From Anaerolineales bacterium (GTDB lineage Bacteria > Chloroflexota > Anaerolineae > Anaerolineales > Villigracilaceae), in the NCBI GenBank assembly GCA_034411715.1, contig DAOUMJ010000209.1, forward strand, positions 11,604 to 75,603: 64,000 bases of DNA. Reading direction: 5' to 3'. Both the position numbers and the translations under genes were made by a program. The notes under the pieces were generated by a model that saw only the letters and a program-made list of their open reading frames with translations, was not told where the DNA came from and searched no databases. Of this stretch, positions 1 to 64,000 are shown one piece after another. Position 1 is the first letter of the stretch; every line of letters starts with the position of its first letter.

Positions 1-2502
1 CTGCACGCGCGCTTCCACGAGGACTTCGGCGCCATCGTGGACAAGGTGCAAGTGACCATCGTCACCGAGCCCGCGCTCCACGCCGAATGGCTGGAGAAGG
101 CGCGCGCCGCCTACGACTTCCGCAACAAACGTCTCGCCGACCTGACCGACGACAAAGTGGAAGAGTTCTACTCCTGCACATTATGCCAATCTTTTGCGCC
201 GAATCATGTTTGCGTGGTCTCGCCCGAACGACTCGGTTTGTGCGGCGCGTACAACTGGCTGGACTGCAAAGCCTCGTTCAGCATCAACCCGACGGGTCCT
301 AACCAGCCGATCAAACTCGGCAAATTACTGGATGATCGCAAAGGCTACTGGCAAGGCACAAACGACTACGCCCAGATCGGTTCGCATGGCGTGGTACAGG
401 AAGTCTCGATGTATTCCATCATGGAGAATCCGATGACGGCCTGCCTGACCGAAGACGCCGAGGTTTTGATAGATGGGCGATTGACAAAGATCGGCGATTT
501 CGTCAACGCGTATCGCGATCAAACCGAAACGGACTCCGAAGTCTCCAGACTTCGGAACATCCAACGACTGGAGTCGTTGGACTCCGAATTCAAGTTGGAC
601 TCCGAATTCAAGTTGCATACGTTGAACGAAGGCGGCAGGCTGGCGCAAAGCAAACTGCTGGGCGTCCACAAGAATCCCGCGCCCGAAGAGTTGATCCGCC
701 TCGAAACCAAATCGGGATTGGAACTGATCCTGACGCCCAATCACGAAGTCGCGGTGGACCGCTGGGGGCAGAACGGCCACGGTCCCTGGGCGCGCGCCGA
801 CGCGCTGCGCGCGGGCGACCGTCTCTACGCCCTCAAGCATCTGCGCCTCGAAGGAAAGATTCCGCTGACGATTGACCTCCTGCCCGACGATTGCCGCGTA
901 GCGGACGAATCATTGTTGAACGAAATCCGCGAATCCATGCTGGCGCGTTATGGCTCGCTCGCGGCGGCATATCGAACGTTGGGATTGGAGCAACCCAGCC
1001 CGCGCGTAACTTCCATGACAATGAAAGACCTGCGCCATATCGTTGAACAGTTAGGAAATTCCTGGGACGAGTTCAAGCGCAACATCACCACCGTCGCGCC
1101 GAGCAGCGGGCAACCGCGCATGAGACTGCCCGAGATTACTCCCGACTTGCTGTATCTATTGGGTCTGATCGCCTCAGACGGCTCCCTGGGTTGGAAAGGC
1201 CGCGACGAGTGCCGCGTCAACTTCACCAACGCCGAAGCGGGATTGCTGGAAGCCTTCGCCGAAATTTACGCGAGTCACTTCCCCGAAGCCGCGCTCGGAA
1301 AACGCGCCAAGCGCAGCATCGGCAACATTGACGGCCGGCCGATCGTTCCCACACAGGACAGTTTCGATCTCTATGGCAACAACTTCCTCCTGGGATTGAT
1401 GGCTGAAAGTCTCGGCGTGCGGATGCGCGGCGAGCAGGCATGGGATCTGGCGCGCCTGGTTTCCCTGCCCGAAGAACACATCGCCGCGTTCCTGTCAGGC
1501 GTTCTCGACGGCGACGGTTCCGTGCGGCTGCGCGCAGGAACGTGGACAACCGCGGAGTGTTATCTCAGCCACCAGGATAAACAGGCCGCGCATCACCTGC
1601 ATACGTTGTTGAAGCGCTTGGGCGTCGTCAGCGCGCTGCGAAAAGATCGTTCGGTCTATCGTGTGGAAATGCACGGCGCGAACCTGCGCCGCTTCGCCGA
1701 AATGTCCCGCTCGCGCCATCCGCAAAAACGCGCGACGCTGGAGCAAATCGCCGCCCTGCCCAAAAACGGACTCGACAAGGGACAGGATCAAGTCCTGCCC
1801 TACAAGGCTGGCAAGGCGCTGGCGGAATTGCAGGAAAGCCACGCCGTCCTCAGCCCGTCCACGCTGTTCTATTACAAGACGGGACGCTCGCGCCCTGTGG
1901 CGGATAACCTCCGCCTGGTGATCGAGGAAGCCCCCGAGACCTCCGCCGCGCTCGCGCCCCTGCTGGAAACCGATTTCTTCCTCGATACGATCGCTCGCGT
2001 TGAAACCGTGAAAAACGACGGCAAGTACGATTACGTTTACAACGCCAGCCTGCTCGACATCAACAGTTACATCGCCAACGGCATTCACGTCAAGAACTGT
2101 GGCTGCTTCGAATGCATCGTCATGCTCATCCCCGAAGCCAATGGCGTGATGGTCGTCAGCCGCGAGGATACGGCCATGACTCCCGCAGGCATGACCTTCT
2201 CGACCCTCGCGGGCATCGCGGGCGGCGGACTCCAAACCCCGGGCGTGATGGGCGTCGGCAAGTTCTACCTGATCAGCCCCAAGTTCATCTCATCCGACGG
2301 CGGCTTCAAGCGCGTGGTGTGGATGTCGTCGGTGCTGAAACAGTCCATGGCCGATGAGTTCAAGGCCGTCTGCGAACGCGAAGGCGACCCCGACTTTATG
2401 GAGAGAATCGCGGACGCCAGCACCGCTACCACCGTGGATGAACTGCTCGCCTTCCTCGAGGCGCACAATCATCCGGCGATGGCGATGGAGCCGATGTTCT
2501 AG
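1..2502 (+). CDS. acsB: Acetyl-CoA synthase AcsB, C-terminal part (5' end lies outside the window), interrupted by an intein. Extein = 1..441 + 2098..2502.
   Basis: Frame 1 is open from nt 1 (LHARFHEDFGAIV...), stop TAG at 2500-2502. A-cluster cubane motif 'C-TL-C-QSFAPNHV-C-VVSPERLGL-C-G'. Then 'SMYSIMENPMTA' | 552-aa insert | 'CGCFECIVM' (the Cys-Gly-Cys Ni motif). Confidence 0.95.
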   Translation: MHARFHEDFGAIVDKVQVTIVTEPALHAEWLEKARAAYDFRNKRLADLTDDKVEEFYSCTLCQSFAPNHVCVVSPERLGLCGAYNWLDCKASFSINPTGPNQPIKLGKLLDDRKGYWQGTNDYAQIGSHGVVQEVSMYSIMENPMTACLTEDAEVLIDGRLTKIGDFVNAYRDQTETDSEVSRLRNIQRLESLDSEFKLDSEFKLHTLNEGGRLAQSKLLGVHKNPAPEELIRLETKSGLELILTPNHEVAVDRWGQNGHGPWARADALRAGDRLYALKHLRLEGKIPLTIDLLPDDCRVADESLLNEIRESMLARYGSLAAAYRTLGLEQPSPRVTSMTMKDLRHIVEQLGNSWDEFKRNITTVAPSSGQPRMRLPEITPDLLYLLGLIASDGSLGWKGRDECRVNFTNAEAGLLEAFAEIYASHFPEAALGKRAKRSIGNIDGRPIVPTQDSFDLYGNNFLLGLMAESLGVRMRGEQAWDLARLVSLPEEHIAAFLSGVLDGDGSVRLRAGTWTTAECYLSHQDKQAAHHLHTLLKRLGVVSALRKDRSVYRVEMHGANLRRFAEMSRSRHPQKRATLEQIAALPKNGLDKGQDQVLPYKAGKALAELQESHAVLSPSTLFYYKTGRSRPVADNLRLVIEEAPETSAALAPLLETDFFLDTIARVETVKNDGKYDYVYNASLLDINSYIANGIHVKNCGCFECIVMLIPEANGVMVVSREDTAMTPAGMTFSTLAGIAGGGLQTPGVMGVGKFYLISPKFISSDGGFKRVVWMSSVLKQSMADEFKAVCEREGDPDFMERIADASTATTVDELLAFLEAHNHPAMAMEPMF
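442..2097 (+). mobile_element. Full-size intein (552 aa) with a LAGLIDADG homing-endonuclease domain inside acsB
   Basis: Starts with Cys ('CLTEDAEVLIDGRLTKIGDFV', block A). Block B 'LILTPNHEVAV'. Two LAGLIDADG motifs ('LLYLLGLIASDGSL', 'AAFLSGVLDGDGSV'). Ends '...SYIANGIHVKN' followed by the +1 Cys of 'CGCFEC'. Confidence 0.9.
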
Positions 2503-2576: not shown

Positions 2577-3545
2577 ATGAACACCAAATTCCTTTTCGCA
2601 AGCGACCTGATAAGGAAATCCCTGCTGATAAAAATTCTGGCAGTTGCTCTGCTTGTTTTGTTGTTATGCAAACTGCCGGGGGAAATTCTTTTTTGGGTGT
2701 TATGCGCGGAACAGGATCGTGACATACCGCCCAATACCGAGGTAATCGTCTCCGCCTGTAAACGTCCAATTGCGATTGGAGTACCTGGCGGTGATGCATT
2801 GTTTGTACGTGAGGAAAGCAGTAGCAAGATATACCTTCTTGATTTGCGCACCAAGGAAAAAAGAAAAGTCCCTAATGATCCGCTATTGGAGAACAAAGGC
2901 ATATTTCTCAGTTCCGAACTAGTTTGGTTGGAAGGCAGCCTAGTGTCACCAGGCGAACCAGGATATAGGCCGCACTACATTCTAGATTTGACTAACGGTC
3001 AGCGATATGAATTGCTCGATTTGGATTTGCTTCCACGTCTCGAAGGCGGCAAGTTTGATTCCAAAAACTATGTCTACATCCAGTCTGCGGAGCGGGTTTT
3101 CCTTCATCACACGGAAAACACCTTAATCGCCTTATCATCGGATTTTCGCACCAACCAAAGTGAAAGACTTATATTTTCTGGCTATTCTATTGCTACTGAG
3201 AACGGCAAAGGGCTCGAGGAACTCCTGGAAGCCCTAGGAATTAATTACGAGATTGTAGATCTGTCCACAACACGCTACGCCGACATTCCTTCGCCAACCG
3301 GTAGATATGTCGTTCGAAATGATGGCATTTACCTTTCCAGCACCAATACCTCGGTTGTGACTCGTGAGTATACAGGTGGCGTTTTCATGGGCGGTTATTT
3401 TAAGGGTTGGTATTATGATGAAAGCGCTGTGGTTGTTCAGGAAAATCCAAACTATTTAATTGTCATCAGTTTCGGCTCTTCTTTCGTTCCTGTCCCACGT
3501 CCGATTCTCAAACTTCATCTGCCTATATCGCCCATTGCCGATTAG
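2577..3545 (+). CDS. Hypothetical membrane-anchored protein (322 aa) in an AT-richer island
   Basis: Long ORF with an N-terminal hydrophobic segment ('LLIKILAVALLVLLLC'). No recognisable catalytic motif. Composition is visibly AT-richer than the flanking acs genes. Confidence 0.6.
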   Translation: MNTKFLFASDLIRKSLLIKILAVALLVLLLCKLPGEILFWVLCAEQDRDIPPNTEVIVSACKRPIAIGVPGGDALFVREESSSKIYLLDLRTKEKRKVPNDPLLENKGIFLSSELVWLEGSLVSPGEPGYRPHYILDLTNGQRYELLDLDLLPRLEGGKFDSKNYVYIQSAERVFLHHTENTLIALSSDFRTNQSERLIFSGYSIATENGKGLEELLEALGINYEIVDLSTTRYADIPSPTGRYVVRNDGIYLSSTNTSVVTREYTGGVFMGGYFKGWYYDESAVVVQENPNYLIVISFGSSFVPVPRPILKLHLPISPIAD

Positions 3546-3640
3546 CAAGTAACCCTACAGACTCTTTGCGAATGGATGCGAGTATCACATGGGCCGCTTC
3601 GGCGCAGAAAAGCAACAAGCCAAACGACTTGGAGGATGAA

Positions 3641-6600
3641 ATGGAAACACGTCGCACTGGTTTCAAACGGACAGTTGTTATCTTTGTCTTTGCCGTGTTT
3701 ATTCTATTTTTATTCATGATTCCACCAGTGTTTGCCCAAGGAGAAAACCCATCAACACCCACTCCTTACGGTACTATGCCACCCTTCCCTGACACTACTC
3801 CGGAACCCTTCTTTATGCCAGAAATTCCACAAGAAAGCCCTATTCAATCACTAAACCAGATGGAATCTACTGCTCCATTAGGTGGAGATTGGGCCGCGCA
3901 AGTCAACATTTCAGACACAGCAGACGAATCCACCAATCCCAAAATAGCAACGGACAACAACGGAATTTTGCATTTTGTTTGGAGAGAAACTGTCGGCGGA
4001 AAGCAGGAAATCTTTTACAGCCGAATTACCGGTCTCGCCCAATCCATGCCAGTCAACGTTTCCAACAGCCCATCCTTCAACTCAGATTCTCCACAAATTG
4101 TGGCTGACAGCATTGGAACAGCACACATTGTCTGGCAGGAGGAGGATAACGACCACGCTGATGATTTCGAGACGCTCTATAGTCGATGCGATGAATCTGG
4201 TTGCACACCCCCAATGATATTGTCAGACGGTAATGTTTGTAGTTCGTACAGCGGTGATTGGAAGGCTGTTACTCCCACAATAGGGATTAACACAGATAAC
4301 AATTTAATAGTCGCATGGATATCATACGAACCAAACCCGAAGAATTACTTGATGTATAGCATCTGGCCAGCATCAAGTTCGCCTCCCACAAATCGAACGG
4401 GATGTCATCCTTATGCTGGATTAATTGGTTTGCCGTTGGTAGCAGGAGATTCGAACGGAAATTTCCATTTGGTTATGCTGGATTATAGTTTTAACGTGTA
4501 TTACAGTAGCAGTAGTAGCGGAAGTTGGACGTCTATTCAAAACATAGGAACGGGATATTACCCGGTAATCTTCATTGATGAAAATAACAAGATTCATACG
4601 GCTTGGTCAGACTACAACAGTATTACTCCACTCTATCGAAGCAGGGAGGGAGCGTCTTGGTCATCGCCAGAGACTGCAATCAGCAATGCACAATGCTATC
4701 AGACTAGCCTTGCAACTGACCAGGACAATCTGCCTCGACTGGTCTGTGCTGGATATGGAACTATCTATGAAACCTCCCGCCAGCCTACTGGATGGACAGA
4801 GGCGACGAACGTTATAGGTGACGAAGCAACACCGAGCCAGCCTAATCTTGCGAAGGATATTAACGGTAATTTACATTTAGTGTGGAGCGATGTTCGCACA
4901 GGAAACAGGGAGACATTTTATTCACCTACCTACAACTGCGAAGGCATTGAACCTGCGACAACAGCTGGGCAAGCGGTTTTGGATGTTTTGGAAAGTGATT
5001 TGAGAAACAGACCATTCCTAAACTACTGCAAAAACCTGGTTGAGGAAATAATCTTAGTCCCCGCTCCCGGTGGACAGGATGATCCTAAGGAGGCTTTTAA
5101 ACAGTGGGCAGACCTCGCTAGTTCCGCCGCCCACGAAGTTGCTTTTACAGTCATGTTTTGGGACAGGGGCAGCCCTGGAGAGATTGTACTTCAAGGAATA
5201 AGGAGCCTTTATGATAAGGTAATAAATCCATCGACTACCATTGGGTATCCACACGGCATGACAGTGCGCATCTTGTTGGGCGTGAAAGTAAATGCAATTG
5301 CTCCCCCTTGGCCGGACCAAAGGGATTCTGTTTTACGCGAATTGCAAAACCAAGATATTCCAATTTATAAGACCTTACCTGATGGGCGTGTTTGGAAAAT
5401 CCAAGTGGGTGTATACCGAGAAGGCCTTCAATGGAGTAAATCGCCGGGAGCCTATAGTCACGTCAAATTAATGGTCGTAGACAGTAATAAAATGATTGTT
5501 TCTGGCTATCATCCTCAATATGCATTTCAGACCGCTGAAAATGGAGAGGCCGATTACCATGATTTGGGAATAAAAGTCGCCGGCCCTATTGCTGCAAACG
5601 GGATGGCAGTTTTCGACTCTTTATGGGCTGATAGCGAGATTAAATGTACCGAAGAAGGTGCTTGGATAATTGACAATGATCTCTCTTTAGATCTATGCGG
5701 CGAACCTGGGCTTGGGGAGAATCCAACACATTGGTTCTTTGTTCCAACTGGAGATGACATTGCCCTACCGCTATATCGCGACCTTACTCAAAAAGTAGCG
5801 GACATGGCTGTGGAGCAAGCGATTAAGTCTGCAAATACTCAAGTCTATGTTATCCAGAACCGCGTTGGGGTATCTGGAAATTTTCCTGTTTTATCTTACG
5901 GAGAAGATGGGTGGCTGAATTATGCGAACGCACTTCTTAAAGAAGCATTGGAGAATACGGAAGTTCGCATCCTCTTTTCCAGAGACACAGCCAATTTTTA
6001 CTATAACCTTCCTTCCATGTTAAATTTCATGGATAAATATTATCAAGAGGGAGGACAGGAAGAGGAATGGAATATCTTTAGATTTTATCACCCGGAGGGA
6101 TATAACCTCTTTACCCAGATTGGACTACACGCCAAAACTTTCATGATCGACGGAGAATTTCTTGTCATTGGGAGCCAGAATTTCGATCACTCTGCATTTG
6201 GTAGTTCTCGCGATGATTTAGATTTGGTAGAGTATAGCCTGGGAATAGAAGACAGTACTACTATCATAAATATAAAGCAAGATTATTATTCAGATGCCCT
6301 GTGGAATTCATCTATTGGTCCGGAGGTAATCAGCCCGGAAGATTCTTTCAAAGCAAGCGTTGAACAGGCCAGCCCCGGGGCAATTATTTTTATGAAGCCG
6401 GGATACTATGAGATTTCCAGTCCAGTAACGATTCCCGAAGGAGTTACAGTCGTTGGCTTGGATGCGGTCATCAGGCCATCAGTTTATTTCGTTGGACAAA
6501 CAGAGACGTTCAAGCTGGCTGCGCCCAATTTTGCTTCCACTCCTGCTCCACTATTGCACATTACTGGCAGTAACGTGACATTGATTGGGTTGACTCTTCA

Positions 6601-7783
6601 GAACAGTTCTGGTTATGCTATTGAAATTGGAGATGGAAGTACAGCAATTGAGAACGTTTATTTGTCTCGATTGGTTTTTGAAAACAACGCATTGGGCGGC
6701 GTTCATGTTCAAGGCCCCGCCGATGGCGGCCTTGCCGACTACACAATTGAAAATAACACCTTTGTGGGCGGCGGTTCCGGGGTGACAATCACAGCCAGTG
6801 CAACTGCAACTGGGATCATCCGTAATAACATCTTTGCCGGGCAAAGCCTCGCGCCAGTACAGATAACCTCTGAGAATGATGGAAATGTCGAGTATAATTA
6901 TAACCTGTTTTACGCTTGCGCGAGCGGCGGTTGCGCGGACAATTGGCACATTGGAAACCTGGGAGTTGGTTCGAACGCACATGACAACCTCTTTGACCTA
7001 AATCCGCTGTTCGCCAATCCCGCATTTGGAGATTACCATCTCTCTTCTGCCTCGCCCGCGATAGATATTGGCGATCCGGACATTTTGAACGATCTGGTCT
7101 ACGATGGGAATGGCGACGGTTTGCCGCGCATTGACATGGGAGCATTCGAATACTTGGGAGAATCTGGCGGGCCTACGCCAACTGTGGCTCCTTCGCCTAC
7201 ACTAACGGCAACTCCGACGCTTACATGGACACCCATATTTACCTTCACACCAACATTGACCCGGACGCCTACCTCTACTTTCACACCGACGCCAAGCCCA
7301 ACACCGACCTTGACTCGAACATCTACAGCAACTTTCACGCCAACAGTGAGCCTAACACCGACTTTCACACTGACATCGAGCCCAACACCGACCAAAACCT
7401 CGCCCCCTACAAGTTCGCCGACACAAACTGGCCTATATCAATTCACTGGGTTTTTCCCGCCGGTTGATAACCAGCCGATTCTAAATGAATTGAAAGCCGG
7501 AAGCGCCGTACCGATCAAGTTCAGTTTGGGCGGCTATCAGGGCATGAATATCTTGGCCGAGGGTTATCCAGTCTCTGGCATAGTAACTTGCGGTTTCTCC
7601 ATCGTGGACGCCATTGAGCAGACGGTCACTGCGGAATCAAGTAGTCTCTCTTACGATGCCTCGTACAACCAATATATCTACGTCTGGAAAACCAATAGCG
7701 CTTGGTCTGGCGCCTGCCGAACGTTCGTAATGAAACTGCTTGACGGCTCCTACCATCGAGCAGACTTCAAATTCAGAAAGTAG
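3641..7783 (+). CDS. Giant secreted multidomain protein: signal peptide, degenerate propeller repeats, PLD-like domain (2x HKD), right-handed beta-helix, Thr/Pro linker, C-terminal ~115-aa domain
   Basis: Start chosen at ATG 3641 ('[10 protein letters not shown]' plus the hydrophobic '[23 protein letters not shown]'), preceded by GGAGGA at 3631-3636. The ORF track start is 3566. Six to seven ~50-aa repeats ('[21 protein letters not shown]', '[15 protein letters not shown]', '[18 protein letters not shown]'). HKD motifs '[16 protein letters not shown]' (from 5459) and '[20 protein letters not shown]' (from 6128). Beta-helix repeats ('[13 protein letters not shown]', 'IRNNIFAG'). TP-rich linker ~7165-7420. 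The C-terminal domain carries 'PIKF'. Confidence 0.8.
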
Positions 7784-7788
7784 CTCGG

Positions 7789-8307
7789 ATGCGAGAGATG
7801 ATTCTAGTGGATGCGCCAGTCCTTATTCGCGACCTCATGACTATCGGTGTACCAACTTGCAAGACCACTACTCCGGTTGTTGACATCGCGCGTTTTCTGA
7901 TAGACAATAACGTGGAAGAAATGGTCGTTCTGGGAAGCGAGGGCGAAGGCGTGGGAGTGGTCGGCTACGAGGAATTGGTCACGGCCTATCATCGTGAGAA
8001 CGCCCGCGAGTTGACCGCCGAGGACGTGATGCGCGAAGGCGTGACCGAGTTACCCTCCGACATCCCGCTCACCGTCGCCGCGCAGATGATGAAAGACAAA
8101 GGCGTCCGCGTCGCGTACATGAACCATAATTCGGCAGGCATCATCTATCCCGCCGCGATGATCTCGTACCGCCACATTGTCCGTCATTTGGCCGCGAAAG
8201 ACGAGAGCGAACTGAAAGACTTGGGTCTCGCGGCGGAACGCAAATCACCTGTCGAAGTGTTTGTCGCGCGAAGAGACCAAGCGCGCAAAGAAGCGAAGAT
8301 TACATAG
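7789..8307 (+). CDS. CBS-domain pair protein
   Basis: 172-aa ORF with two CBS-like halves ('IRDLMTIGVPTC...VVDIARFLIDNNVEEMVVL', 'AEDVMREGVTELPSD..PLTVAAQMMKDKGVRVAYM'). Confidence 0.75.
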   Translation: MREMILVDAPVLIRDLMTIGVPTCKTTTPVVDIARFLIDNNVEEMVVLGSEGEGVGVVGYEELVTAYHRENARELTAEDVMREGVTELPSDIPLTVAAQMMKDKGVRVAYMNHNSAGIIYPAAMISYRHIVRHLAAKDESELKDLGLAAERKSPVEVFVARRDQARKEAKIT

Positions 8308-8308
8308 C

Positions 8309-8362
8309 AGTACCGCAAGATTTATCTTGCCTGCTGGTGGGCAACATGAATGTTGCGGTACT
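8309..8362. repeat. ~54-nt double-hairpin element, copy A
   Basis: AGTACCG-CAAGATTTATCTTG-(spacer)-CAACATGAATGTTG-CGGTACT: a 7-bp outer stem enclosing two small hairpins. Confidence 0.8.
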
Positions 8363-8375
8363 ACAAACTGCACAA

Positions 8376-8416
8376 CCTGAAACCTGACACCTGAAACCTG
8401 ACACCGAAACACCACA
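8376..8416. repeat. CCTGAAA/CCTGACA heptamer array upstream of acsD
   Basis: CCTGAAA CCTGACA CCTGAAA CCTGACA CCGAAAC ACCACAC. Confidence 0.8.
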
Positions 8417-8431
8417 CTCACTGGAGGAACA

Positions 8432-9376
8432 ATGCCAATCGAAATCCCAAAGGATAAGTGGCCTGGAAGCGTCCGCACCGTGACCATCGGCGCGACAGCC
8501 GCGGAGGGCGGGACGCGCGCCAAGTCCGTCACTGTCGGCGGCGAGACCACCCTGCCATACATGCACTTCGAAGCGCCCATGCCGAACAAACCCGTGATCG
8601 CCATCGAGATCAAGTCGCGCAAACCCGATGATTGGTCGCCGTTGTTGGCCGAGGCCTGGGGCGAGGCGATGTCCGACCCCGCTCAATGGGCGAAAAAAGC
8701 CGAAGAAGCAGGCGCCGACCTCCTCGTCCTGGCGTTGACGCTGGCCGATTCGCCCGACGACGCGGTGAAGGCCGTCAAGTCGGTCCTCGCCGCGACGGGA
8801 CACCCGCTCGTCGTCTGGGGACCCGGTCAGGCCGAGAAAGACAACGAACTGCTCGTTCCTGTGTCCGAAGCGACGAAGGGCGAGCGGATCGTCCTCGGCA
8901 TTTGCGAAGACAAAAACTACCGCACCATCGTTGCGACCGCCATGGCGAACGGACATCTCGTGCAGGCGCGCACGCCGATGGACGTGAACCTGTCGAAGCA
9001 GTTGAACATCCTCATCAGCGACATGGGCATGCCGAAGGATCGCATCATCATGGACCCGACGACGGGAGCATTGGGTTACGGGATTGAGTACGGCTACTCG
9101 GTGATGGAACGCCTGCGCCTCGCCGCGTTGCAAGGCGACGCGATGACGCAATCGCCGATGCTGGTCACGCCTGGATTCGAAGCGTGGAAAACAAAAGAGG
9201 CGAAAGTCGGCGAGGGCGTCCCCGAAACCTGGGGCGATTGGAAGGGGCGCTCGATCAATTGGGAAACCCTCACCGCCCTCGCGCTGGTCGAATCGGGCGC
9301 GGATATTCTCGTGTTGCGGTATCCCGAGTCGGTCGCGCGAGTGAAGAACGCGATTGAAGAGTTGGTGGTGGCGTGA
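8432..9376 (+). CDS. acsD: Corrinoid iron-sulfur protein small subunit (CFeSP delta, AcsD/CdhD)
   Basis: 'MPIEIPKDKWPGSVRTVTIGAT...TVGGETTLPYMHFE' is a typical AcsD N-terminus. GGAGGA lies upstream. Sits in acs operon context next to acsC. Confidence 0.9.
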   Translation: MPIEIPKDKWPGSVRTVTIGATAAEGGTRAKSVTVGGETTLPYMHFEAPMPNKPVIAIEIKSRKPDDWSPLLAEAWGEAMSDPAQWAKKAEEAGADLLVLALTLADSPDDAVKAVKSVLAATGHPLVVWGPGQAEKDNELLVPVSEATKGERIVLGICEDKNYRTIVATAMANGHLVQARTPMDVNLSKQLNILISDMGMPKDRIIMDPTTGALGYGIEYGYSVMERLRLAALQGDAMTQSPMLVTPGFEAWKTKEAKVGEGVPETWGDWKGRSINWETLTALALVESGADILVLRYPESVARVKNAIEELVVA

Positions 9377-9478: not shown

Positions 9479-10783
9479 ATGGCGCTCTCTGGAATTCAAA
9501 TCTACAAACTCTTGCCTCAGACGAACTGTAAAGAGTGTGGTTTCCCAACTTGTTTGGCCTTCGCGATGAAACTCGCCGCCAAGCAGGTCGAACTCGGCGC
9601 GTGTCCCTACGTCACCGATGAATCGAAAAAGCAACTGGCTGAATCGTCCGCGCCGCCCATCCGCCTCGTGGCGCTCAAGGCTGGCACGGAAGTCAAAGCG
9701 GGCAACGAGGTCTGCCTCTTCCGCCACGAAAAAACTTTTTACAACAAGCCTGGCCTGTTCATCCGCGTCAACGCCAGCGACCCCGACCTCGCGAAAAAAG
9801 TCGCGCAGGCCGACGCGTACAAGGTCAACTACGTGGGCATGGACTTCACGATTGACGGCTTCGCGGTCGGTGGGGATTCGGACCTGGGCGCGGCGGTCAA
9901 GACGATTCGCGGCGTGACGAAGCGACCGCTCATCCTCATCGGCGACGCGGCCTCGCTTCAATCTGGACTTTCGGCCTGCGGAGGCGAGACCCCATTGCTC
10001 TACGCGGCTGACGCGTCCAACGCCGACGCGCTCGCGGACCTCGCCAAGGGCAAAGCCGCCCTCGTCGTCAAAGCCGATTCGCTCGACGCGCTTGCCGACT
10101 TGACTCAGAAAGTCCAGGCGAAGGGCGTGGAAGATATCGTTCTCGATCCGTCCGCCTCCACGCTTGGCGCGTCCTTGGCTGTCAACACGCAACTGCGCCG
10201 ACTCGCCCTGAAAAATTTCCGTCCATTGGGCTATCCCATCATCGCCTTCCCCTGCGACGCGAAAGACGAGGGCATCGCGGCCGCGCAAGCCATCGCCAAG
10301 TATGCGGGCTTCATCGTGTTGAGCGAGTTCAAACCCGAACTGCTCTACCCGCTGCTCGTCCTGCGCGAGAACATCTACACCGACCCGCAGAAACCGATTC
10401 AAGTCCAACCTGGCATCTACGAGATCAACCAGCCCAAACCCGAAAGCCCCGTGCTGGTCACCACGAACTTCAGCATCACCTACTTCTCGGTTGCCAACGA
10501 GGTCGAAGGCTCAGGCCTTCCCGCCTGGCTGGTCGTGACCGACGCGGAAGGTATGTCCGTGCTGACCGCGTGGGCGGCGGGAAAATTCGACGCGGAGAGA
10601 ATCGCCAAGGCCATCAAAGGCTTCGACGTGGCGAGCAAAGTCAGCAAGAAGCGCGTCGTCCTGCCTGGACACGTCGCCGTGCTTTCGGGCGAACTCGAAG
10701 CGGAACTGCCCGACTGGGAGATTCGCGTCGGCCCGCGCGAGGCGGTGGATTTGCCCGCGTTTATGAAGCAGGCGCTGAATTAG
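9479..10783 (+). CDS. acsC: Corrinoid iron-sulfur protein large subunit (CFeSP gamma, AcsC/CdhE)
   Basis: N-terminal 4Fe-4S motif 'LPQTNCKECGFPTCLAFAMKLAAKQVELGACPYV'. 434 aa. AAGGAG lies upstream. Confidence 0.92.
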   Translation: MALSGIQIYKLLPQTNCKECGFPTCLAFAMKLAAKQVELGACPYVTDESKKQLAESSAPPIRLVALKAGTEVKAGNEVCLFRHEKTFYNKPGLFIRVNASDPDLAKKVAQADAYKVNYVGMDFTIDGFAVGGDSDLGAAVKTIRGVTKRPLILIGDAASLQSGLSACGGETPLLYAADASNADALADLAKGKAALVVKADSLDALADLTQKVQAKGVEDIVLDPSASTLGASLAVNTQLRRLALKNFRPLGYPIIAFPCDAKDEGIAAAQAIAKYAGFIVLSEFKPELLYPLLVLRENIYTDPQKPIQVQPGIYEINQPKPESPVLVTTNFSITYFSVANEVEGSGLPAWLVVTDAEGMSVLTAWAAGKFDAERIAKAIKGFDVASKVSKKRVVLPGHVAVLSGELEAELPDWEIRVGPREAVDLPAFMKQALN

Positions 10784-10845
10784 GTAGACAGGTAAACAGG
10801 TCGCGCGCTCCACGTGTGTACTTGTGTACGTGTTTACCTGTGTAC
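10784..10845. repeat. GTACACAG-family imperfect palindrome, acsC-acsV spacer
   Basis: Left arm GTAGACAGGTAAACAGGT. Right arm ACGTGTGTACTTGTGTACGTGTTTACCTGTGTAC. Confidence 0.85.
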
Positions 10846-10851
10846 CCCCCC

Positions 10852-12801
10852 ATGAACCACACCCTCACCTTCACTCACGAAGACAAGCAAGCCAGCGTCA
10901 CCGTTCCCACCAACACGCTGCTGGCTGACGCGGCGCGTCTCGCGGGGATTGATATCGGCCAGCCATGCGGCGGGCAGGGACGCTGCGGCCGCTGCGCGGT
11001 GCAGGTGACGGAGGGCGAAGTTCGACGCAGAAGCACACTCCGCCTCTCCGTGTCGGACGTGAATGAGGGTTACGCGTTGGCTTGTCAAACCGTTGCTGAA
11101 GGCAACGCCGCGATCTTCGTCCCGCCGCAGGAAAAGATCGAACGGCGACTCACGACCGATCGCGTCGTCGCGGAAGTCACCGTCCCTGCGGATTACGATT
11201 ACGACGCGTTCCAGACCGTCCGCCGTGTGCATCTGCAACTCAGCCCTCCCAGCATGGATGACCAGACCGACGACTGGGCGAGATTGCAAATCGCGTTTCG
11301 ATTGCAGCATGGGATGGAGAGTGTTGCGTGTTCCGTTGGCTTGCTGCGAAAGATCGGCGCCGTCCTCCGCGAAGGCGATTGGAACGTCACCGCCGTCATC
11401 GAAACTCCGCGACTAGCCGACCACGCGACTATTCGACTATTAGACTTACAACCGGGCCGCGTGGACGAATACTCCCCCCTCTGGGGCGCGGCGATTGACA
11501 TCGGCACAACGACGGTCACGCTCTGGCTGGTGGATCTGGTGACGGGACAAGTCCGCGCGCAGGCCGCCGAATACAACGGCCAGATCGCGCGCGGCGAGGA
11601 CGTGATCTCGCGCATCATCTACGCCAGCAAGGACGGCGGCGGGGACGAGATGCGCCAGCGCGTGCTGGATACGATCAACGGCCTGCTCGAAGCCGCCTGC
11701 AAGCGCGTGAAGTCCCCCGAGGGAAAAGTGACGCCCGACCAGGTTGTGAAAGCGACCATCTCTGGCAATAGCACGATGATGCACCTTCTGCTTGGAATCC
11801 CCGCCGCGCCGATTCGACTCTCGCCGTTTATCACGACGGTCAATCATCCGCCCGCGATGACCGCGCGCGAAGTGGGCTTGCACGCGCACCCCGAAGCGGC
11901 GGTGGATTGCCTGCCCGGCGTCGCGAGTTACGTCGGCGCGGATATTACGGCGGGCGCGCTGTCGTCCGGACTCGACGACGCGGAAAACGTGACGCTGTTC
12001 CTCGATGTCGGCACGAACGGCGAAACGGTGCTGGGCAACCGCGATTGGCTGGTGACGTGCGCGTGTTCGGCGGGTCCTGCCTTCGAGGGCGCGGGGGTGG
12101 TGGACGGGATGCGCGCAACGCAAGGCGCCATCGAAGAGGTGTGGATCAACAGCGAAACGCTCGAGCCGACGTACCGCGTCATCGGCGGAGGCAAGCCGAA
12201 GGGAATTTGCGGAAGCGGGCTGATCTCCCTCTTGTCGGAGGCGTTCATCACGGGAGTCCTCGACAAGGGAGGCAACGTCAATTTGGCCGCGCCCAGCCCG
12301 AGGGTCCGGGAAGGAGCGCACGGCGGGGAGTACGTCGTCGCCTGGGGAGCGGAGACCGAGTCGGGCGAGGATATTGTCCTGACGCGCGTCGACATTGACA
12401 ATCTCCTGCGCGCCAAGGCCGCGATCTACGCGGGCTTTACCGTCCTTGCCGAGAATGTCGGCATCCCGCTCGAAAGCGTGGAGCGCGTGCTGGTGGGCGG
12501 GTCGTTCGGAAAATACATCAACGTCGAGAAGGCCGTGCAGATCGGGCTTTTACCAGATCTCGAATGGAAGCGCTTCGAGTTTCTCGGCAATACGTCGGTG
12601 AAGGGCGCGTATCTCGCGCTGCTCGATTGGAGGAAGCGCGAGCGCATCACTGAGATCGCGAAGCGAATGACTTATATCGAACTTTCCGCGGACAACACAT
12701 TCTACGAGGCGTTCACGTCCGCGTTGTTTTTGCCGCACACGGATTTGAGCAAGTTTCCGAGTGTGGCGGAGGCTCTTGAACGTAAACAGGTAGACACGTA
12801 A
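10852..12801 (+). CDS. acsV: Reductive activator of CFeSP (RACo/AcsV type: 2Fe-2S ferredoxin domain plus ASKHA ATPase)
   Basis: Start moved to ATG 10852 ('MNHTLTF...'), because the track ORF from 10570 overlaps acsC. Plant-type ferredoxin motif 'CGGQGRCGRCAV..ACQ', then an ASKHA-like 'AAIDIGTTTVTLWLVD' and 'LFLDVGTNGE'. The stop lies inside a repeat element. Confidence 0.85.
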   Translation: MNHTLTFTHEDKQASVTVPTNTLLADAARLAGIDIGQPCGGQGRCGRCAVQVTEGEVRRRSTLRLSVSDVNEGYALACQTVAEGNAAIFVPPQEKIERRLTTDRVVAEVTVPADYDYDAFQTVRRVHLQLSPPSMDDQTDDWARLQIAFRLQHGMESVACSVGLLRKIGAVLREGDWNVTAVIETPRLADHATIRLLDLQPGRVDEYSPLWGAAIDIGTTTVTLWLVDLVTGQVRAQAAEYNGQIARGEDVISRIIYASKDGGGDEMRQRVLDTINGLLEAACKRVKSPEGKVTPDQVVKATISGNSTMMHLLLGIPAAPIRLSPFITTVNHPPAMTAREVGLHAHPEAAVDCLPGVASYVGADITAGALSSGLDDAENVTLFLDVGTNGETVLGNRDWLVTCACSAGPAFEGAGVVDGMRATQGAIEEVWINSETLEPTYRVIGGGKPKGICGSGLISLLSEAFITGVLDKGGNVNLAAPSPRVREGAHGGEYVVAWGAETESGEDIVLTRVDIDNLLRAKAAIYAGFTVLAENVGIPLESVERVLVGGSFGKYINVEKAVQIGLLPDLEWKRFEFLGNTSVKGAYLALLDWRKRERITEIAKRMTYIELSADNTFYEAFTSALFLPHTDLSKFPSVAEALERKQVDT

Positions 12802-13436: not shown

Positions 13437-13513
13437 GTAAACACGTAGACAGGTACACAGGTAAACACGTATACACGTGACCTGTCTACCTGTGTACTTG
13501 TGTACTTGTATAC
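13437..13513. repeat. GTACACAG-family palindrome, GNAT-acsE spacer
   Basis: GTAAACACGTAGACAGGTACACAGGTAAACACGTATACACGTGAC / CTGTCTACCTGTGTACTTGTGTACTTGTATAC. Confidence 0.85.
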
Positions 13514-13532
13514 CAACCAACTGGAGGCACAA

Positions 13533-14456
13533 ATGCTGATCATAGGCGAAAACATTCATATCATCTCCGAGAAAGTCAAGGAGGCGTTGGCTAATCGCGA
13601 CCGCGAGTTCTTCATGGATTTGGCCGTCAAGCAGGTGGAGGCGGGGGCGAAGGCGATTGACATCAACCTCGGGCCGCGCAAGAAGGATTGGGCGGAGGTC
13701 TTCCCGTGGATCGTCGAGACGATCGAGACCGTGGTGGATGTGCCGCTCTCGATTGACACGACCAACGTGGACGGGATGGAAGCCGCGCTCAAAACCATCA
13801 AGAAGGCGCAGCCGATCCTGAATTCGACATCGGCGGAACCCGAACGATTGGAAAAAGTCCCGCTGCTGGCAAAGAAATACAACGCCAAGATCATCGCGCT
13901 GACGATGGGGACGAGCGGCATCCCCGTCGAGGCCGACGCGCGCGTCAATATCGCGGTCGAGACGTTGATTCCGCGACTCATGGAGATCGGCTTCAACATG
14001 GACGATCTCATCATTGACCCGCTGGTGCTGACCGTTTCAGGCTGCCAGCAATACTGCCCGCACTTGATCGAAACCGTGCGGATGTTGCAATACGCCTGGG
14101 ATCCGGCGCCGAAGATCTCGGTCGGGTTGAGCAACGTGTCGAACGCCGTCCCGAACGAGAACCGTCCGCTCATCAACCGCGTCTACCTCGCCATGCTGAT
14201 GGGCGTCGGCCTGCAGACGATGATCGCCAATCCGTTCGACGAAAAGCAGAACGACGTCATCCGCTGGATCGAAACGAAGGACGCCTCGTCCCCGCTGGCG
14301 CGGCTGTATAACAAGATCGCCGAACGCACCGCCAACAGCGAAGAACCGCAGATGGAAGACTTCGATTTGTCCGATCCCGAACAGTCCGCCATCTGGAAGA
14401 CGACGCAGATTCTGTTGAACAAAGTCATTTATGCGGATGCGTATCTGGCGAACTGA
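13533..14456 (+). CDS. acsE: Methyltetrahydrofolate:CFeSP methyltransferase (pterin-binding domain)
   Basis: Start at ATG 13533 after GGAGG. 'MLIIGENIHIISEKV...AGAKAIDINLGP' is a typical AcsE/MeTr N-terminus. Confidence 0.9.
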   Translation: MLIIGENIHIISEKVKEALANRDREFFMDLAVKQVEAGAKAIDINLGPRKKDWAEVFPWIVETIETVVDVPLSIDTTNVDGMEAALKTIKKAQPILNSTSAEPERLEKVPLLAKKYNAKIIALTMGTSGIPVEADARVNIAVETLIPRLMEIGFNMDDLIIDPLVLTVSGCQQYCPHLIETVRMLQYAWDPAPKISVGLSNVSNAVPNENRPLINRVYLAMLMGVGLQTMIANPFDEKQNDVIRWIETKDASSPLARLYNKIAERTANSEEPQMEDFDLSDPEQSAIWKTTQILLNKVIYADAYLAN

Positions 14457-24184: not shown

Positions 24185-24868
24185 ATGATCGTTGCAGAAC
24201 AAAAAACTTTGGAAGAGATCAAGAACCTGGTCGGCGGCGCGAAGAACGTGCTGGTCGTCGGATGCGGCACGTGCGTCACCGTCTGCTTCGCAGGCGGGGC
24301 GCGCGAGGCGGCCATCGTCTCGGCCGAGTTGCGGATGGCCTCCAAACTCGACGGCGACCCGAAAGCCGTCACCGATGTGACCGTCCAGCGGCAATGCGAG
24401 TGGGAGTATCTCGATGAGATCGCCGAGCAGATCAAGGATGTGGATGTGGTGCTTTCGCTTGGCTGCGGCGTGGGCGTGCAAGCCATCGCGGAACACTTCC
24501 CGAACGCGTGGGTTGTGCCTGGGCTGAATACCAAGTTCATGGGACTGCCGACCGAGCAGGGAGTCTGGGCGGAACGTTGCGCGGCCTGCGGCGACTGCAT
24601 CCTCGGGCTGACGGGCGGAATCTGCCCGATCGCGCGCTGTTCCAAGTCGCTTCTTAATGGACCTTGCGGCGGGTCGCTGGATGGACACTGCGAGATCAAC
24701 GAGGAGGTCTCCTGCGCCTGGCAGTTGATCTATGACCGCTTGAAGAGTATGGACAAACTGGAAGTCCTCATGGACATCCAGCCGCCCAAGAATTGGCGAA
24801 CGTCCCGCGACGGCGGCCCGCGCAAGATCGTGCGCGAAGACCTGCGTCTGATCGCAGAGGAGAAGTAG
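24185..24868 (+). CDS. metV: Methylene-THF reductase small subunit (MetV, Cys-rich MTHFR_C-type)
   Basis: 'VVGCGTCVTVCFAGG', 'CAACGDCILGLTGGICPIARCSKSLLNGPCGGS..GHCE'. Immediately upstream of metF. Confidence 0.85.
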   Translation: MIVAEQKTLEEIKNLVGGAKNVLVVGCGTCVTVCFAGGAREAAIVSAELRMASKLDGDPKAVTDVTVQRQCEWEYLDEIAEQIKDVDVVLSLGCGVGVQAIAEHFPNAWVVPGLNTKFMGLPTEQGVWAERCAACGDCILGLTGGICPIARCSKSLLNGPCGGSLDGHCEINEEVSCAWQLIYDRLKSMDKLEVLMDIQPPKNWRTSRDGGPRKIVREDLRLIAEEK

Positions 24869-24870
24869 AC

Positions 24871-25896
24871 ATGGCTGGCACAAACGGTTATCTCTCCGGC
24901 TCGAATCTCGAGCGTGTTTTGAAAAACGGTCACTTTGCCGTCACTGCCGAACTCGGCCCACCCCAGAACGCGGATGGAAATGTGATTCGAAAAAAAGTCG
25001 GTCTGCTGAAGGGATATTGTGACGCCGCCAACCTGACCGACAACCAGACCGCCATCGTGCGCATGTCCAGCATCGGCGCGGGGGCGATCCTGGTGCAGGA
25101 GGGAATCGAACCCGTTATCCAGATGGTCTGCCGCGACCGCAACCGCCTGGCCATGCAAAGCGACCTGCTCGGCGCGTACGCGCTCGGCATCCGCAACCTG
25201 CTGTGTCTCACCGGCGACCATCAGACCTTCGGAAACCATCCCACCGCTAAGAATGTGTTCGACATTGACTCCACCCAGATGGTGCAGATGGTGACGGACA
25301 TGCGCGATAAGCGCGTCTTCCAGTGCGGCGAGGAATTGAAAGGACAGGAACCGCGCTTTTTCGTCGGCGCGGCCGAATCACCCTTCGCGCATCCGGTGGA
25401 CTTCCGTCCGTACCGCCTCGGCAAGAAGGTCAAGGCGGGCGCGAGTTTCATCCAGACGCAACTGGTCTTCGACATCGCGGCCTTCAAGAAGTTCATGGAA
25501 AAAGCGCGCGAGTTGGGCATCCACAAACAAACGTACATCCTAGCCGGAGTCGGTCCGCTCAAAAGCCCGACCATGGCGAAGTACATGAAAGATAACGTAC
25601 CAGGCATTTTGATTCCCGACGAATTGATCGCGCGCATGACCGCGGCCGGCAAACCCTGGGCTGGCAAGAACAAGGATGAGTTGACCGCCGAAGACAAGAA
25701 AGCCCGCTCGAAAGCCTGGCAGGAAGAAGGCATCAAGATCTGCATCGAACTCATCCGGCAAATGCGCGAGATCGAAGGCGTGTCGGGCGTGCATCTCATG
25801 TGCATCGAATGGGAAGAGGCGGTCAAGCCGATCGTCGAGGGCGCGGGGCTGTATCCGCGGCCAATCGTGGCTGAGCCGCAGGAAGTCAGACCCTAA
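24871..25896 (+). CDS. metF: Methylenetetrahydrofolate reductase
   Basis: Start at ATG 24871, 2 nt after the metV stop. 'FAVTAELGPP', 'NLTDNQTAIVRMSS', 'CRDRNRLAMQSDLLGAYALGIRNLLCLTGDH'. Confidence 0.88.
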   Translation: MAGTNGYLSGSNLERVLKNGHFAVTAELGPPQNADGNVIRKKVGLLKGYCDAANLTDNQTAIVRMSSIGAGAILVQEGIEPVIQMVCRDRNRLAMQSDLLGAYALGIRNLLCLTGDHQTFGNHPTAKNVFDIDSTQMVQMVTDMRDKRVFQCGEELKGQEPRFFVGAAESPFAHPVDFRPYRLGKKVKAGASFIQTQLVFDIAAFKKFMEKARELGIHKQTYILAGVGPLKSPTMAKYMKDNVPGILIPDELIARMTAAGKPWAGKNKDELTAEDKKARSKAWQEEGIKICIELIRQMREIEGVSGVHLMCIEWEEAVKPIVEGAGLYPRPIVAEPQEVRP

Positions 25897-63331: not shown

Positions 63332-64000
63332 ATGGATATCGTTACCGGTAAGATCCTCAAACGCAACGGCTGGCCCGATGGACGCATCATCGGCATCGCC
63401 AAGGACGCCGCGGCGCGCCTGCTCGAAACGGGCCTCGACCGCGACTCGGTTCTCGCGCGACTTTCGGCGGTGCGCGCCGACCCGGGCCGTTTCCTCGCCG
63501 ACGCGACCCTGTCCGAGTTGGCGCGCGAATGTGTCCGCGTGAGTCAGCCCAGGGAGGAGAGTCCCGCCGAACTGCGCGGCGAGGCGATTCCCTATCCGAT
63601 CTGGGGACGCGAAAATATTGACGACCAGTCCCTCGCGCAAATGAACAACGCCATGCGACTGCCCATCACCGTGGCGGGCGCGCTCATGCCCGACGCGCAC
63701 GTGGGCTACGGCCTGCCCATCGGCGGCGTGCTGGCCACCGAGAACGCCGTCATCCCGTATGCCGTGGGAGTTGATATTGCCTGTTTTTCAGGGGATACAA
63801 AAGTTCCGCTGTTGGACGGAAATGACTATACGCTCGAAGAACTTGTAAATCGAACAGAACCGTTTTACGTTTATGCCTGCAAATCTGATGGGAAAATCGT
63901 TATTGCTCCTGCAACTGCCGTCAAAACCGCGAAAAATGCCCGACTTGTTGAAGTGACGCTTGATAATGGCGAGAAAGTTTTCTGCACTCCAGATCATGAT
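63332..64000 (+). CDS. rtcB: RNA ligase RtcB, 5' part (runs off the window), interrupted by an intein from 63782
   Basis: Not in the ORF track (no stop in the window). ATG at 63332. 'ALMPDAHVGYGLPIGGV' and 'IPYAVGVDIA' | 'CFSGDTKVPLLDG...' (the RtcB 'GVDIGCG' metal site is interrupted). Confidence 0.85.
   Translation, partial: MDIVTGKILKRNGWPDGRIIGIAKDAAARLLETGLDRDSVLARLSAVRADPGRFLADATLSELARECVRVSQPREESPAELRGEAIPYPIWGRENIDDQSLAQMNNAMRLPITVAGALMPDAHVGYGLPIGGVLATENAVIPYAVGVDIACFSGDTKVPLLDGNDYTLEELVNRTEPFYVYACKSDGKIVIAPATAVKTAKNARLVEVTLDNGEKVFCTPDHD
63782..64000 (+). mobile_element. Intein N-terminal part inside rtcB (continues beyond the window)
   Basis: Block A 'CFSGDTKVPLLDGNDYTLEELV', later 'VFCTPDH' (block B-like). 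An abrupt shift to AT-rich sequence falls exactly at the junction. Confidence 0.8.

Follow-up and report, generated by a model that had tools for sequence, protein, structure and literature searches.

The acetyl-CoA synthase (ACS) gene acsB, which opens a 64,000-nucleotide (nt) stretch of contig DAOUMJ010000209.1 from an Anaerolineales bacterium (the window, meaning the whole stretch analysed), is interrupted at positions 442-2097 by an insert of 552 amino acids (aa), directly in front of the Cys-Gly-Cys motif that binds the catalytic nickel. In our view the insert is a true class-1 intein that contains a LAGLIDADG homing endonuclease of the two-motif type. We see it first of all as a selfish mobile element, which would splice out before Ni is inserted, and we give this reading a probability of roughly 85%. 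It is supported by the boundaries of the insert, its homology and fold, the conservation of its catalytic residues, a scar-free junction, the occurrence of empty, mini and full-size alleles, and purifying selection. A preliminary description of the window had proposed a full-size LAGLIDADG intein in acsB, and matches to hidden Markov models (HMMs), the fold found with AlphaFold and Foldseek, and conserved catalytic residues bear this out.

An open frame (+1) extends from the first base of the window to the stop codon at 2500-2502, and acsB is truncated by the 5' edge of the window. The frame reads …SMYSIMENPMTA | CLTEDAEVLIDG … (552 aa) … SYIANGIHVKN | CGCFECIVM…, and the gene is divided as follows.

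1..441, + strand: N-extein of acsB (partial), approximately Moorella ACS residues 448-594, with the cubane motif C-x2-C-x8-C-x9-C at nt 175-243
442..2097, + strand: ACS intein, 552 aa, with the Cys1 codon TGC at 442-444 and the Asn552 codon AAC at 2095-2097
2098..2502, + strand: C-extein of acsB, 134 aa and the stop codon, beginning with Cys+1-Gly-Cys (codons TGTGGCTGC at 2098-2106), which corresponds to Moorella C595-G596-C597

With the insert removed, the remaining 281 aa align without a gap to residues 450-728 of Moorella ACS (1mjg_M, E 3.7e-103), and the joined exteins also align to the ACS enzymes of Carboxydothermus and Clostridium. In this alignment the +1 cysteine is Moorella residue 595, as the preliminary description had deduced, and the end of the C-extein coincides with the end of Moorella ACS. 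The Pfam model ACS_CODH_B_C (E 1e-104) matches in two stretches that flank the insert. The cubane motif occupies frame residues 59-81 and lies exactly 67 residues, counted from its last cysteine, before the junction; the motif and this distance, both claimed before, are present in frame +1, and once the insert is removed the cubane and Cys-Gly-Cys ligands of the A-cluster domain stand at the Moorella spacing. In the Moorella enzyme, the proximal Ni is bound by Cys595, Cys597 and the bridging Cys509, and the distal Ni by Cys595, Cys597 and backbone amides of the Cys595-Gly596-Cys597 tripeptide (PMC10299331). All four cubane cysteines are on the N-extein side, and the Cys-Gly-Cys is contiguous in the C-extein. 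The intein sits between Ala(-1) and Cys595, so that it adjoins the tripeptide and does not break it. The earlier wording that the intein splits the Cys-Gly-Cys motif has to be corrected accordingly: the insertion point is immediately before the tripeptide.

The G+C content (GC) of the intein is 0.597, against 0.58 and 0.62 in the exteins, and is thus host-like, in agreement with the preliminary description. Similarly, the codon-usage cosine to other Wood-Ljungdahl genes is 0.92 for the intein and 0.93 for the exteins. The patchy GC of the window (0.40-0.66) and a low-GC block directly after acsB could raise the suspicion of an assembly or binning artefact, that is, a chimeric contig in which an ACS gene was joined to an unrelated homing-endonuclease gene. 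Both junctions are in frame, however, GC and codon usage are host-like, and independent assemblies of at least 48 genomes and nine metagenome contigs have the same architecture, which leaves an artefact with a vanishingly small probability.

Within the intein, the following parts were distinguished.

442..852, + strand: N-terminal splicing (Hint) region, aa 1-137, with block A (CLTEDAEVLIDG) at 442-477 and block B (T98-P-N-H101) at 733-744
517..612, + strand: loop expansion (between aa 26 and 57) that exceeds the loop of all relatives by about 24-25 aa
853..1767, + strand: endonuclease region, aa 138-442, comprising a linker/DNA-recognition-like segment and the LAGLIDADG core
1147-1188, + strand: LAGLIDADG motif 1 (LLYLLGLIASDGSL), aa 236-249, LLYLLGLIASD246G with the catalytic D246
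1483-1524, + strand: LAGLIDADG motif 2 (AAFLSGVLDGDGSV), aa 348-361, AAFLSGVLD356GD358G
1768..1965, + strand: helical module, aa 443-508, with the invariant motif LSPSTLFYYKTGRSRPV at 1849-1899
1966..2097, + strand: C-terminal splicing region, aa 509-552, with blocks F and G, DFFLD…YVYNASLLDINSYIANGIHVKN

The initial Cys, the TPNH at aa 98-101, the two LAGLIDADG motifs and the terminal Asn followed by Cys had all been located correctly in the preliminary description. The Hint-domain HMM check that it had called for was positive: the NCBIfam model TIGR01445 (intein_Nterm) covers aa 1-104 with 44.1 bits (cutoff 24.5). Pfam LAGLIDADG_3 was matched with 59.5 bits (threshold 22.5, E 4e-16). Together with the ACS_CODH_B_C matches that flank the insert, these scores rule out chance. 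A search of the PDB from the single sequence gave weak intein matches (best E 0.002). A profile of nine family members matched the inteins KlbA (Mja) (4e-11), PI-PkoII (1e-9), PhoCDC21-1, TliVMA and RadA (Pho), as well as hedgehog Hint domains, I-MsoI, an I-DmoI/I-CreI chimera and I-CreI. The AlphaFold2 model of the intein, generated from the family alignment, reached a predicted local distance difference test score (pLDDT) of 85.8 and a predicted template-modelling (TM) score of 0.86, with pLDDT values below 50 only at aa 29-49 and 111-113. The best Foldseek matches of this model in the PDB were PI-TkoII (E 3e-19, TM 0.61/0.62), the TliVMA intein, PI-PfuI and PI-SceI; among endonucleases, I-DmoI, I-Tsp061I, E-DreI and I-AniI were matched (TM on target 0.5-0.7), and so were I-CreI-type enzymes.

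The residues expected to carry out catalysis are conserved. Cys1, Thr98, His101, Asn552, D246, D356 and D358 are invariant in nine sequences of 38-59% identity, Cys+1 is present in 49 of the 49 sequences tabulated, and Asn552 is invariant. As Cys1 is present, position F:4 is not Cys and the +1 residue is Cys, the element falls into class 1 of the inteins as defined in PMC4031507.

Several observations weigh against this reading. The Pfam model Intein_splicing (PF14890) remained below its threshold (27.5 vs 35.8 bits), and the intein_Cterm model gave no match for this intein in the NCBIfam scan. The C-terminal motif, when aligned with the ends of the PhoCDC21-1 and KlbA inteins, is atypical, with Asn at F:4 (usually Asp), Asn at F:13 (usually His) and Lys551 as the penultimate residue (usually His). 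The loop expansion falls in the N-terminal splicing domain; it is found in the window copy only, is predicted to be disordered (pLDDT below 50 at aa 29-49) and holds a fresh, perfect in-frame 18-bp tandem duplication (TTGGACTCCGAATTCAAG x2 at 577-612, LDSEFK LDSEFK). Moreover, every host of an ACS intein is an uncultured metagenome-assembled genome (MAG), with no cultured isolate among them, and the synonymous divergence behind the selection estimates given below is near saturation.

The non-canonical blocks F and G, the new loop with its recent duplication and the sub-threshold Pfam score could also mean that splicing has been lost and that the insert is dead, leaving acsB an inactive pseudogene. 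The non-canonical residues are, however, conserved over 49 sequences from many phyla, with frames that are intact through both exteins; the ratio of nonsynonymous to synonymous substitution rates (dN/dS) of the extein is 0.11-0.13, the C-extein ends at the Moorella ACS position, and acsB lies within an intact Wood-Ljungdahl cluster. Splicing without a penultimate His is documented as well (reference 74 in PMC4031507). We consider a dead insert very improbable.

The ending with Lys-Asn and F:4 Asn is a family-wide variant rather than a lesion or defect, judging from the tabulated sequences. Most of the 49 have Lys as the penultimate residue, a few have Ala and a single one has His, while P0004 has Glu; F:4 is Asn in nearly all, and F:13 is Asn in the Anaerolineae clade. 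The penultimate His (G:6), the F:4 Asp and the F:13 His are common in inteins and not obligatory (PMC4031507), and the documented splicing in the absence of the penultimate His is our reason for speaking of a variant. The low Intein_splicing score is consistent with the lack of these three residues; this model alone is an inadequate test, and TIGR01445, the PDB search with the family profile, and the predicted fold were used in its place. The window intein and its sub-clade carry His549 at position -4. Compensation between the F:13 His and this -4 His was considered and rejected, as the 'LLVKN' sub-clade of Anaerolineae has neither.

No other part of the intein is as conserved as the helical module (aa 443-508), which also has the lowest dN/dS (0.06-0.07). 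Y477, Y478, R482, S483, R484 and P485 are invariant in the nine sequences, the motif including YYKTGRSRP, and the segment is helical in the AlphaFold model. Neither the module nor the linker had a significant match in Pfam. One guess is that the module binds DNA, possibly as a helix-turn-helix. A similar segment (…W..G.RRPS…) was seen in a paralogous ACS intein at a second site, which is described below.

When the intein was used as a protein query, 18 homologues hosted by ACS were obtained (40-70% identity), all of them from metagenomes or MAGs. A scan of GTDB, with one genome per species, returned 78 loci, 48 of which show the junction …N|CGCF(E/Q)(C/S) inside an ACS gene with an open full-length frame; the intein is thus present in at least 48 species. 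The hosts belong to Chloroflexota (Anaerolineae, Caldilineaceae, Ardenticatenaceae, Thermoflexus), Aerophobetes, Actinomycetota, Omnitrophota, Bipolaricaulota/Acetothermia, Fraserbacteria, Planctomycetia and Poribacteria and include one Clostridia MAG, about nine phyla in all. The remaining GTDB loci are archaeal inteins in other proteins (24-30% identity). An exhaustive HMMER pass over 1.84 billion cluster representatives gave only 23 with E ≤ 1e-30, which indicates a small sequence family. The nearest full-size relatives of the window intein are L083 (79.6% identity) and L001, L002 and L080 (about 78.6%); a mini-intein from L084-L088 reaches 88.7% in the parts that the two have in common. 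Anaerolineae with about 80% extein identity contain two intein sub-lineages, one ending in …HVKN (59-79% identical to the window intein) and one in …LVKN (about 50%), so that the divergence of the intein is only loosely tied to that of its host. In the databases, ACS-intein proteins (P0002, P0007, P0008, P0009, P0016) are labelled 'LAGLIDADG family homing endonuclease (partial)' by NCBI, and JGI labels the same family as ACS or 'intein/homing endonuclease'.

Near relatives of the window acsB show every stage of a homing cycle, namely empty, full-size and mini alleles. The alignment to intein-free AcsB and the survey of empty alleles that the preliminary description had proposed were both carried out and yielded homologues without the insert of about 550 aa. 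The best 120 homologues of the spliced extein (73-91% identity) contain no intein domains. In six empty homologues that were inspected, the site reads …SMYSIMENPMTACGCFECIVMLIPEANG… (PMTACGCFEC), with flanks identical to those in the window. Empty sites occur at extein identities as high as 90-91% (P0024-26), and the DNA of the empty site in L079, TACTCGATCATGGAAAACCCCATGACGGCC|TGCGGTTGCTTTGAGTGCATCGTCATGCTC, matches the joined flanks of the window at 51 of 60 nt. A full-size intein at the Cys595 site only is carried by L080, L081, L083, L001 and L002 (83-92% extein identity). The closest relative of the window acsB (93% extein identity), recovered from five metagenome samples (L084-L088), has a mini-intein of 222 aa at C595. 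In the protein alignment, the mini-intein keeps residues 1-25, 51-137 and 443-552 of the window intein, including the helical module, and has cleanly lost residues 138-442, the endonuclease.

The open reading frame (ORF) of L084 at 4717-9297 carries, besides the mini-intein at C595, a LAGLIDADG intein of 541 aa at FYSCTL|C…VVKN|CQSFAPNHVC. This second ACS intein, in front of the Cys509 equivalent, also occurs in L006, L017, L037, L048, L049 and P0007. In the window acsB the corresponding site (…FYSCTL|CQSFAPNHVC…) is uninterrupted and the second intein is not present there. Since empty, full-size and mini alleles as well as the Cys509-site intein all occur within 87-93% extein identity, turnover is ongoing.

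In comparisons with L001 and L002, the intein had a dN/dS of 0.11 and its endonuclease core one of 0.08-0.09, against 0.11-0.13 in the extein; the synonymous divergence (dS) from the nearest full-size relatives is 1.2-1.3 in the intein and 0.85-0.94 in the extein, and as a dS of about 1 or more means near saturation, these dN/dS values are rough. The pattern argues against a decaying endonuclease in the window lineage, as far as substitution rates can tell, and agrees with the host-like GC and codon usage. The earlier view of the intein as an old resident is partly upheld: intein and extein have diverged to a similar extent from the nearest full-size relatives, and at the same time the turnover of alleles around the window lineage continues. 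Homing, that is, cleavage of the intein-free allele, is suggested indirectly by the patchy alleles and the low dN/dS of the endonuclease, and splicing likewise by the intact frames in at least 48 species together with the extein dN/dS of about 0.1.

From these data we infer that the intein splices, that its endonuclease is active and that splicing comes before metal insertion. According to the class-1 pathway, which consists of acyl shift, transthioesterification, Asn cyclisation and S-N shift (PMC4031507), acsB would be translated as a precursor in which an N-S acyl shift takes place at Cys1. Cys+1, the future Ni ligand, would then take over the N-extein by transthioesterification, cyclisation of Asn552 would free the intein, and the final S-N shift would leave a native Ala-Cys bond, …NPMTA-CGCFEC…, the same as in the intein-free alleles. 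The predicted ligated junction peptide is ENPMTACGCFECIVMLIPEANGVMVVSR. Folding of the C-terminal ACS domain around the A-cluster, and the insertion of both Ni ions, would have to wait until splicing is complete. It is a reasonable structural inference that the Ni sites can hardly be completed earlier, because the cubane cysteines and the Cys-Gly-Cys share one domain and Cys595 is itself the splice nucleophile. For the [4Fe-4S] cubane this is less certain, as its four cysteines all lie in the N-extein.

In intein-free alleles, the target of the endonuclease would be the highly conserved stretch of DNA that codes for the A-cluster motif. Across phyla, few codons of acsB are as well conserved as those around PMT(A/S)|CGCFEC, and the location of the intein can be explained by conserved DNA in combination with the need for Cys, Ser or Thr at the +1 position. 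The same applies to the Cys509 site.

The preliminary description had further suggested that the Cys1/Cys+1 pair makes the activation of ACS redox-conditional. Put more generally, the intein would be a domesticated switch in which splicing is blocked by a disulfide between Cys1 and Cys+1 (or Cys1 and Cys+3), or by Ni2+ or another metal bound to the Cys-Gly-Cys of the precursor; we widened the proposal to Ni sensitivity because the precursor keeps an intact Cys-Gly-Cys beside the scissile bond. The supposed purpose would be to build the oxygen-sensitive A-cluster only under the right conditions. Cys1 and Cys+1 are indeed present and invariant, and the +1 residue and the Cys two positions on are bona fide metal ligands. 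Cys1 and Cys+1 are, however, a common nucleophile pair in inteins, and what the sequence shows of conditional splicing is its prerequisite cysteines only. Redox-trapped and metal-inhibited inteins are known (cited in PMC4031507).

The purifying selection on the whole intein, which is as strong as that on the host enzyme, and the persistence of a splicing domain in L084-L088 despite the loss of the endonuclease would fit a switch, too. Persistence of a mini-intein is expected in any case, since the gene is restored by precise deletion only. Likewise, the two independent insertion sites each have a Ni-proximal ligand as the +1 residue, but selfish inteins generally insert at conserved catalytic motifs. 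Finally, the closest relatives of 90-91% extein identity are free of the intein, which is consequently not required for ACS function or regulation. We therefore hold a switch to be unlikely; no data support redox-conditional activation, given the commonness of the cysteine pair and the empty alleles of the closest relatives. Equally doubtful is the broader idea that the inteins at the Cys595 and Cys509 sites form a Ni/redox checkpoint that gates A-cluster assembly and to which the Lys-Asn/F:4-Asn chemistry is tuned.

Compared with known systems, the selfish intein proposed here most closely resembles PI-TkoII (2cw7), PI-PfuI (1dq3) and the TliVMA intein (7qss) in structure (Foldseek E 3e-19 to 8e-15, TM 0.54-0.62 on the query), in all of which a Hint domain is split by a two-motif LAGLIDADG endonuclease with helical/DNA-recognition segments; the sequence profile matches them too. 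It differs from them by an identity of only 13-16% and by its host, theirs being DNA polymerase, ribonucleotide reductase and V-ATPase. Canonical inteins of the PI-TkoII/PI-PfuI type end in His-Asn, whereas the ACS family ends in Lys-Asn with an Asn at F:4. Its nearest relatives outside ACS are inteins of archaeal TruB/Cbf5 pseudouridine synthases and PFOR-like proteins (P0019-P0022; L050-L078), which are 24-30% identical along nearly the whole length (E 1e-25 to 1e-30). Unlike the ACS intein, these reside in archaeal hosts, in other proteins and at other sites, and none of them has the N|CGCF junction. The Cys509-site ACS intein is a paralogue, 27-32% identical to the window intein (E 1e-45 to 1e-55), with the same host, architecture and size (540-553 aa), a …VVKN ending and a +1 Cys that ligates the proximal Ni. 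It differs in its site (FYSCxL|CQSFAPNHVC, empty in the window), where Cys509 bridges the cubane and the proximal Ni.

A further comparison is with the condition-sensitive inteins of MoaA, PolII, DnaB and SufB, which serve as precedents for post-translational control. The SufB intein of mycobacteria is one example of condition sensitivity. The mycobacterial DnaB intein is reportedly an oxidative stress sensor (PMC6195587). In the MoaA and PolII inteins of Pyrococcus abyssi, a redox trap or disulfide forms between catalytic cysteines (cited in PMC4031507). These inteins have Cys at position 1 and/or +1, as here, and some of their hosts are related to metal clusters or radical-SAM chemistry; they share only the Hint fold with the ACS intein, and their conditional splicing has been measured, while the ACS intein is known from its sequence.

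Full-text literature searches, which covered sources other than InBase, found no paper that links inteins with ACS, CODH, ACDS or the Wood-Ljungdahl pathway. According to the main text of a survey of prokaryotic inteins, as distinct from its supplements, inteins concentrate in replication, repair and ATPase proteins, and this main text mentions neither acetyl-CoA nor dehydrogenases (PMC4760082). Thus, the supposition of novelty in the preliminary description stands as regards the literature, in which we found no description of an ACS intein, and falls as regards the element, which is not unique to the window but occurs in at least 48 GTDB species. What is new is the host protein and the insertion sites. 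The type of element is conventional, with a mildly atypical C-terminal motif, and the sequences are public and poorly annotated.

In the window, acsB opens a complete Wood-Ljungdahl cluster that also contains HdrA-like flavoproteins and the genes listed here; no second acsB is present within the 64,000 nt.

8432-9376: acsD
9479-10783: acsC
10570-12801: RACo
13500-14456: AcsE-like methyltransferase
24793-25896: MTHFR

The low-GC block mentioned above extends over 5.2 kb (2577-7783) between acsB and acsD/acsC, with a GC of about 45% vs about 60% and a codon-usage cosine of 0.70 vs 0.93. Encoded in it are a 322-aa protein that matches no family and one of 1405 aa that has PLD-like as well as right-handed beta-helix domains. 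As L084 has a different protein of 1032 aa at this position, the block is a variable, probably horizontally acquired insert. Another stretch of low GC (about 46-50%) contains, at 31951-34656, a 901-aa ORF with an N6/N4 DNA methylase domain; this ORF may belong to a mobile restriction-modification island. At 63332-64000, an RtcB gene is interrupted by an intein at …PYAVGVDIA|CFSGDTKVPLLDG… that runs off the end of the window. The GC of this intein is 0.43, vs 0.66 in its N-extein, which fits a much more recent arrival than that of the ACS intein.

In several other Anaerolineae (L013, L019, L035 and L037), the ACS ORFs are 1760-2380 aa long. A third intein in their C-terminal extensions was considered and rejected, as a long Pro/Ala-rich linker was found there that joins the ACS C-terminus to an AcsD/CdhD-like corrinoid-protein domain. 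The window acsB is unfused and ends at the normal position.

The ACS inteins extend the host range of inteins to a Ni-Fe-S enzyme of central C1 metabolism in about nine mostly uncultured phyla. Both insertion sites use a ligand of the catalytic Ni as the splice nucleophile, Cys595 and Cys509 being two of the three thiolate ligands of the proximal Ni. Because of labels such as 'LAGLIDADG family homing endonuclease', Wood-Ljungdahl capacity can be missed in reconstructions from MAGs of Anaerolineae, Omnitrophota, Aerophobetes and other groups. As nature's use of this site indicates that ACS would tolerate being ligated precisely at Ser/Ala594-Cys595, semisynthetic ACS could perhaps be made by expressed-protein ligation, with isotope or selenocysteine labels in the Cys-Gly-Cys. 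Should Ni/redox gating be true after all, it would represent a natural post-translational checkpoint for the central Wood-Ljungdahl enzyme in strict anaerobes. On the reading we prefer, the maturation of ACS would include a splicing step before Ni insertion, which would provide a natural system for the order of cluster assembly, and the clade, with its empty, full-size, mini and doubly occupied genes, constitutes a compact natural series of the homing cycle.

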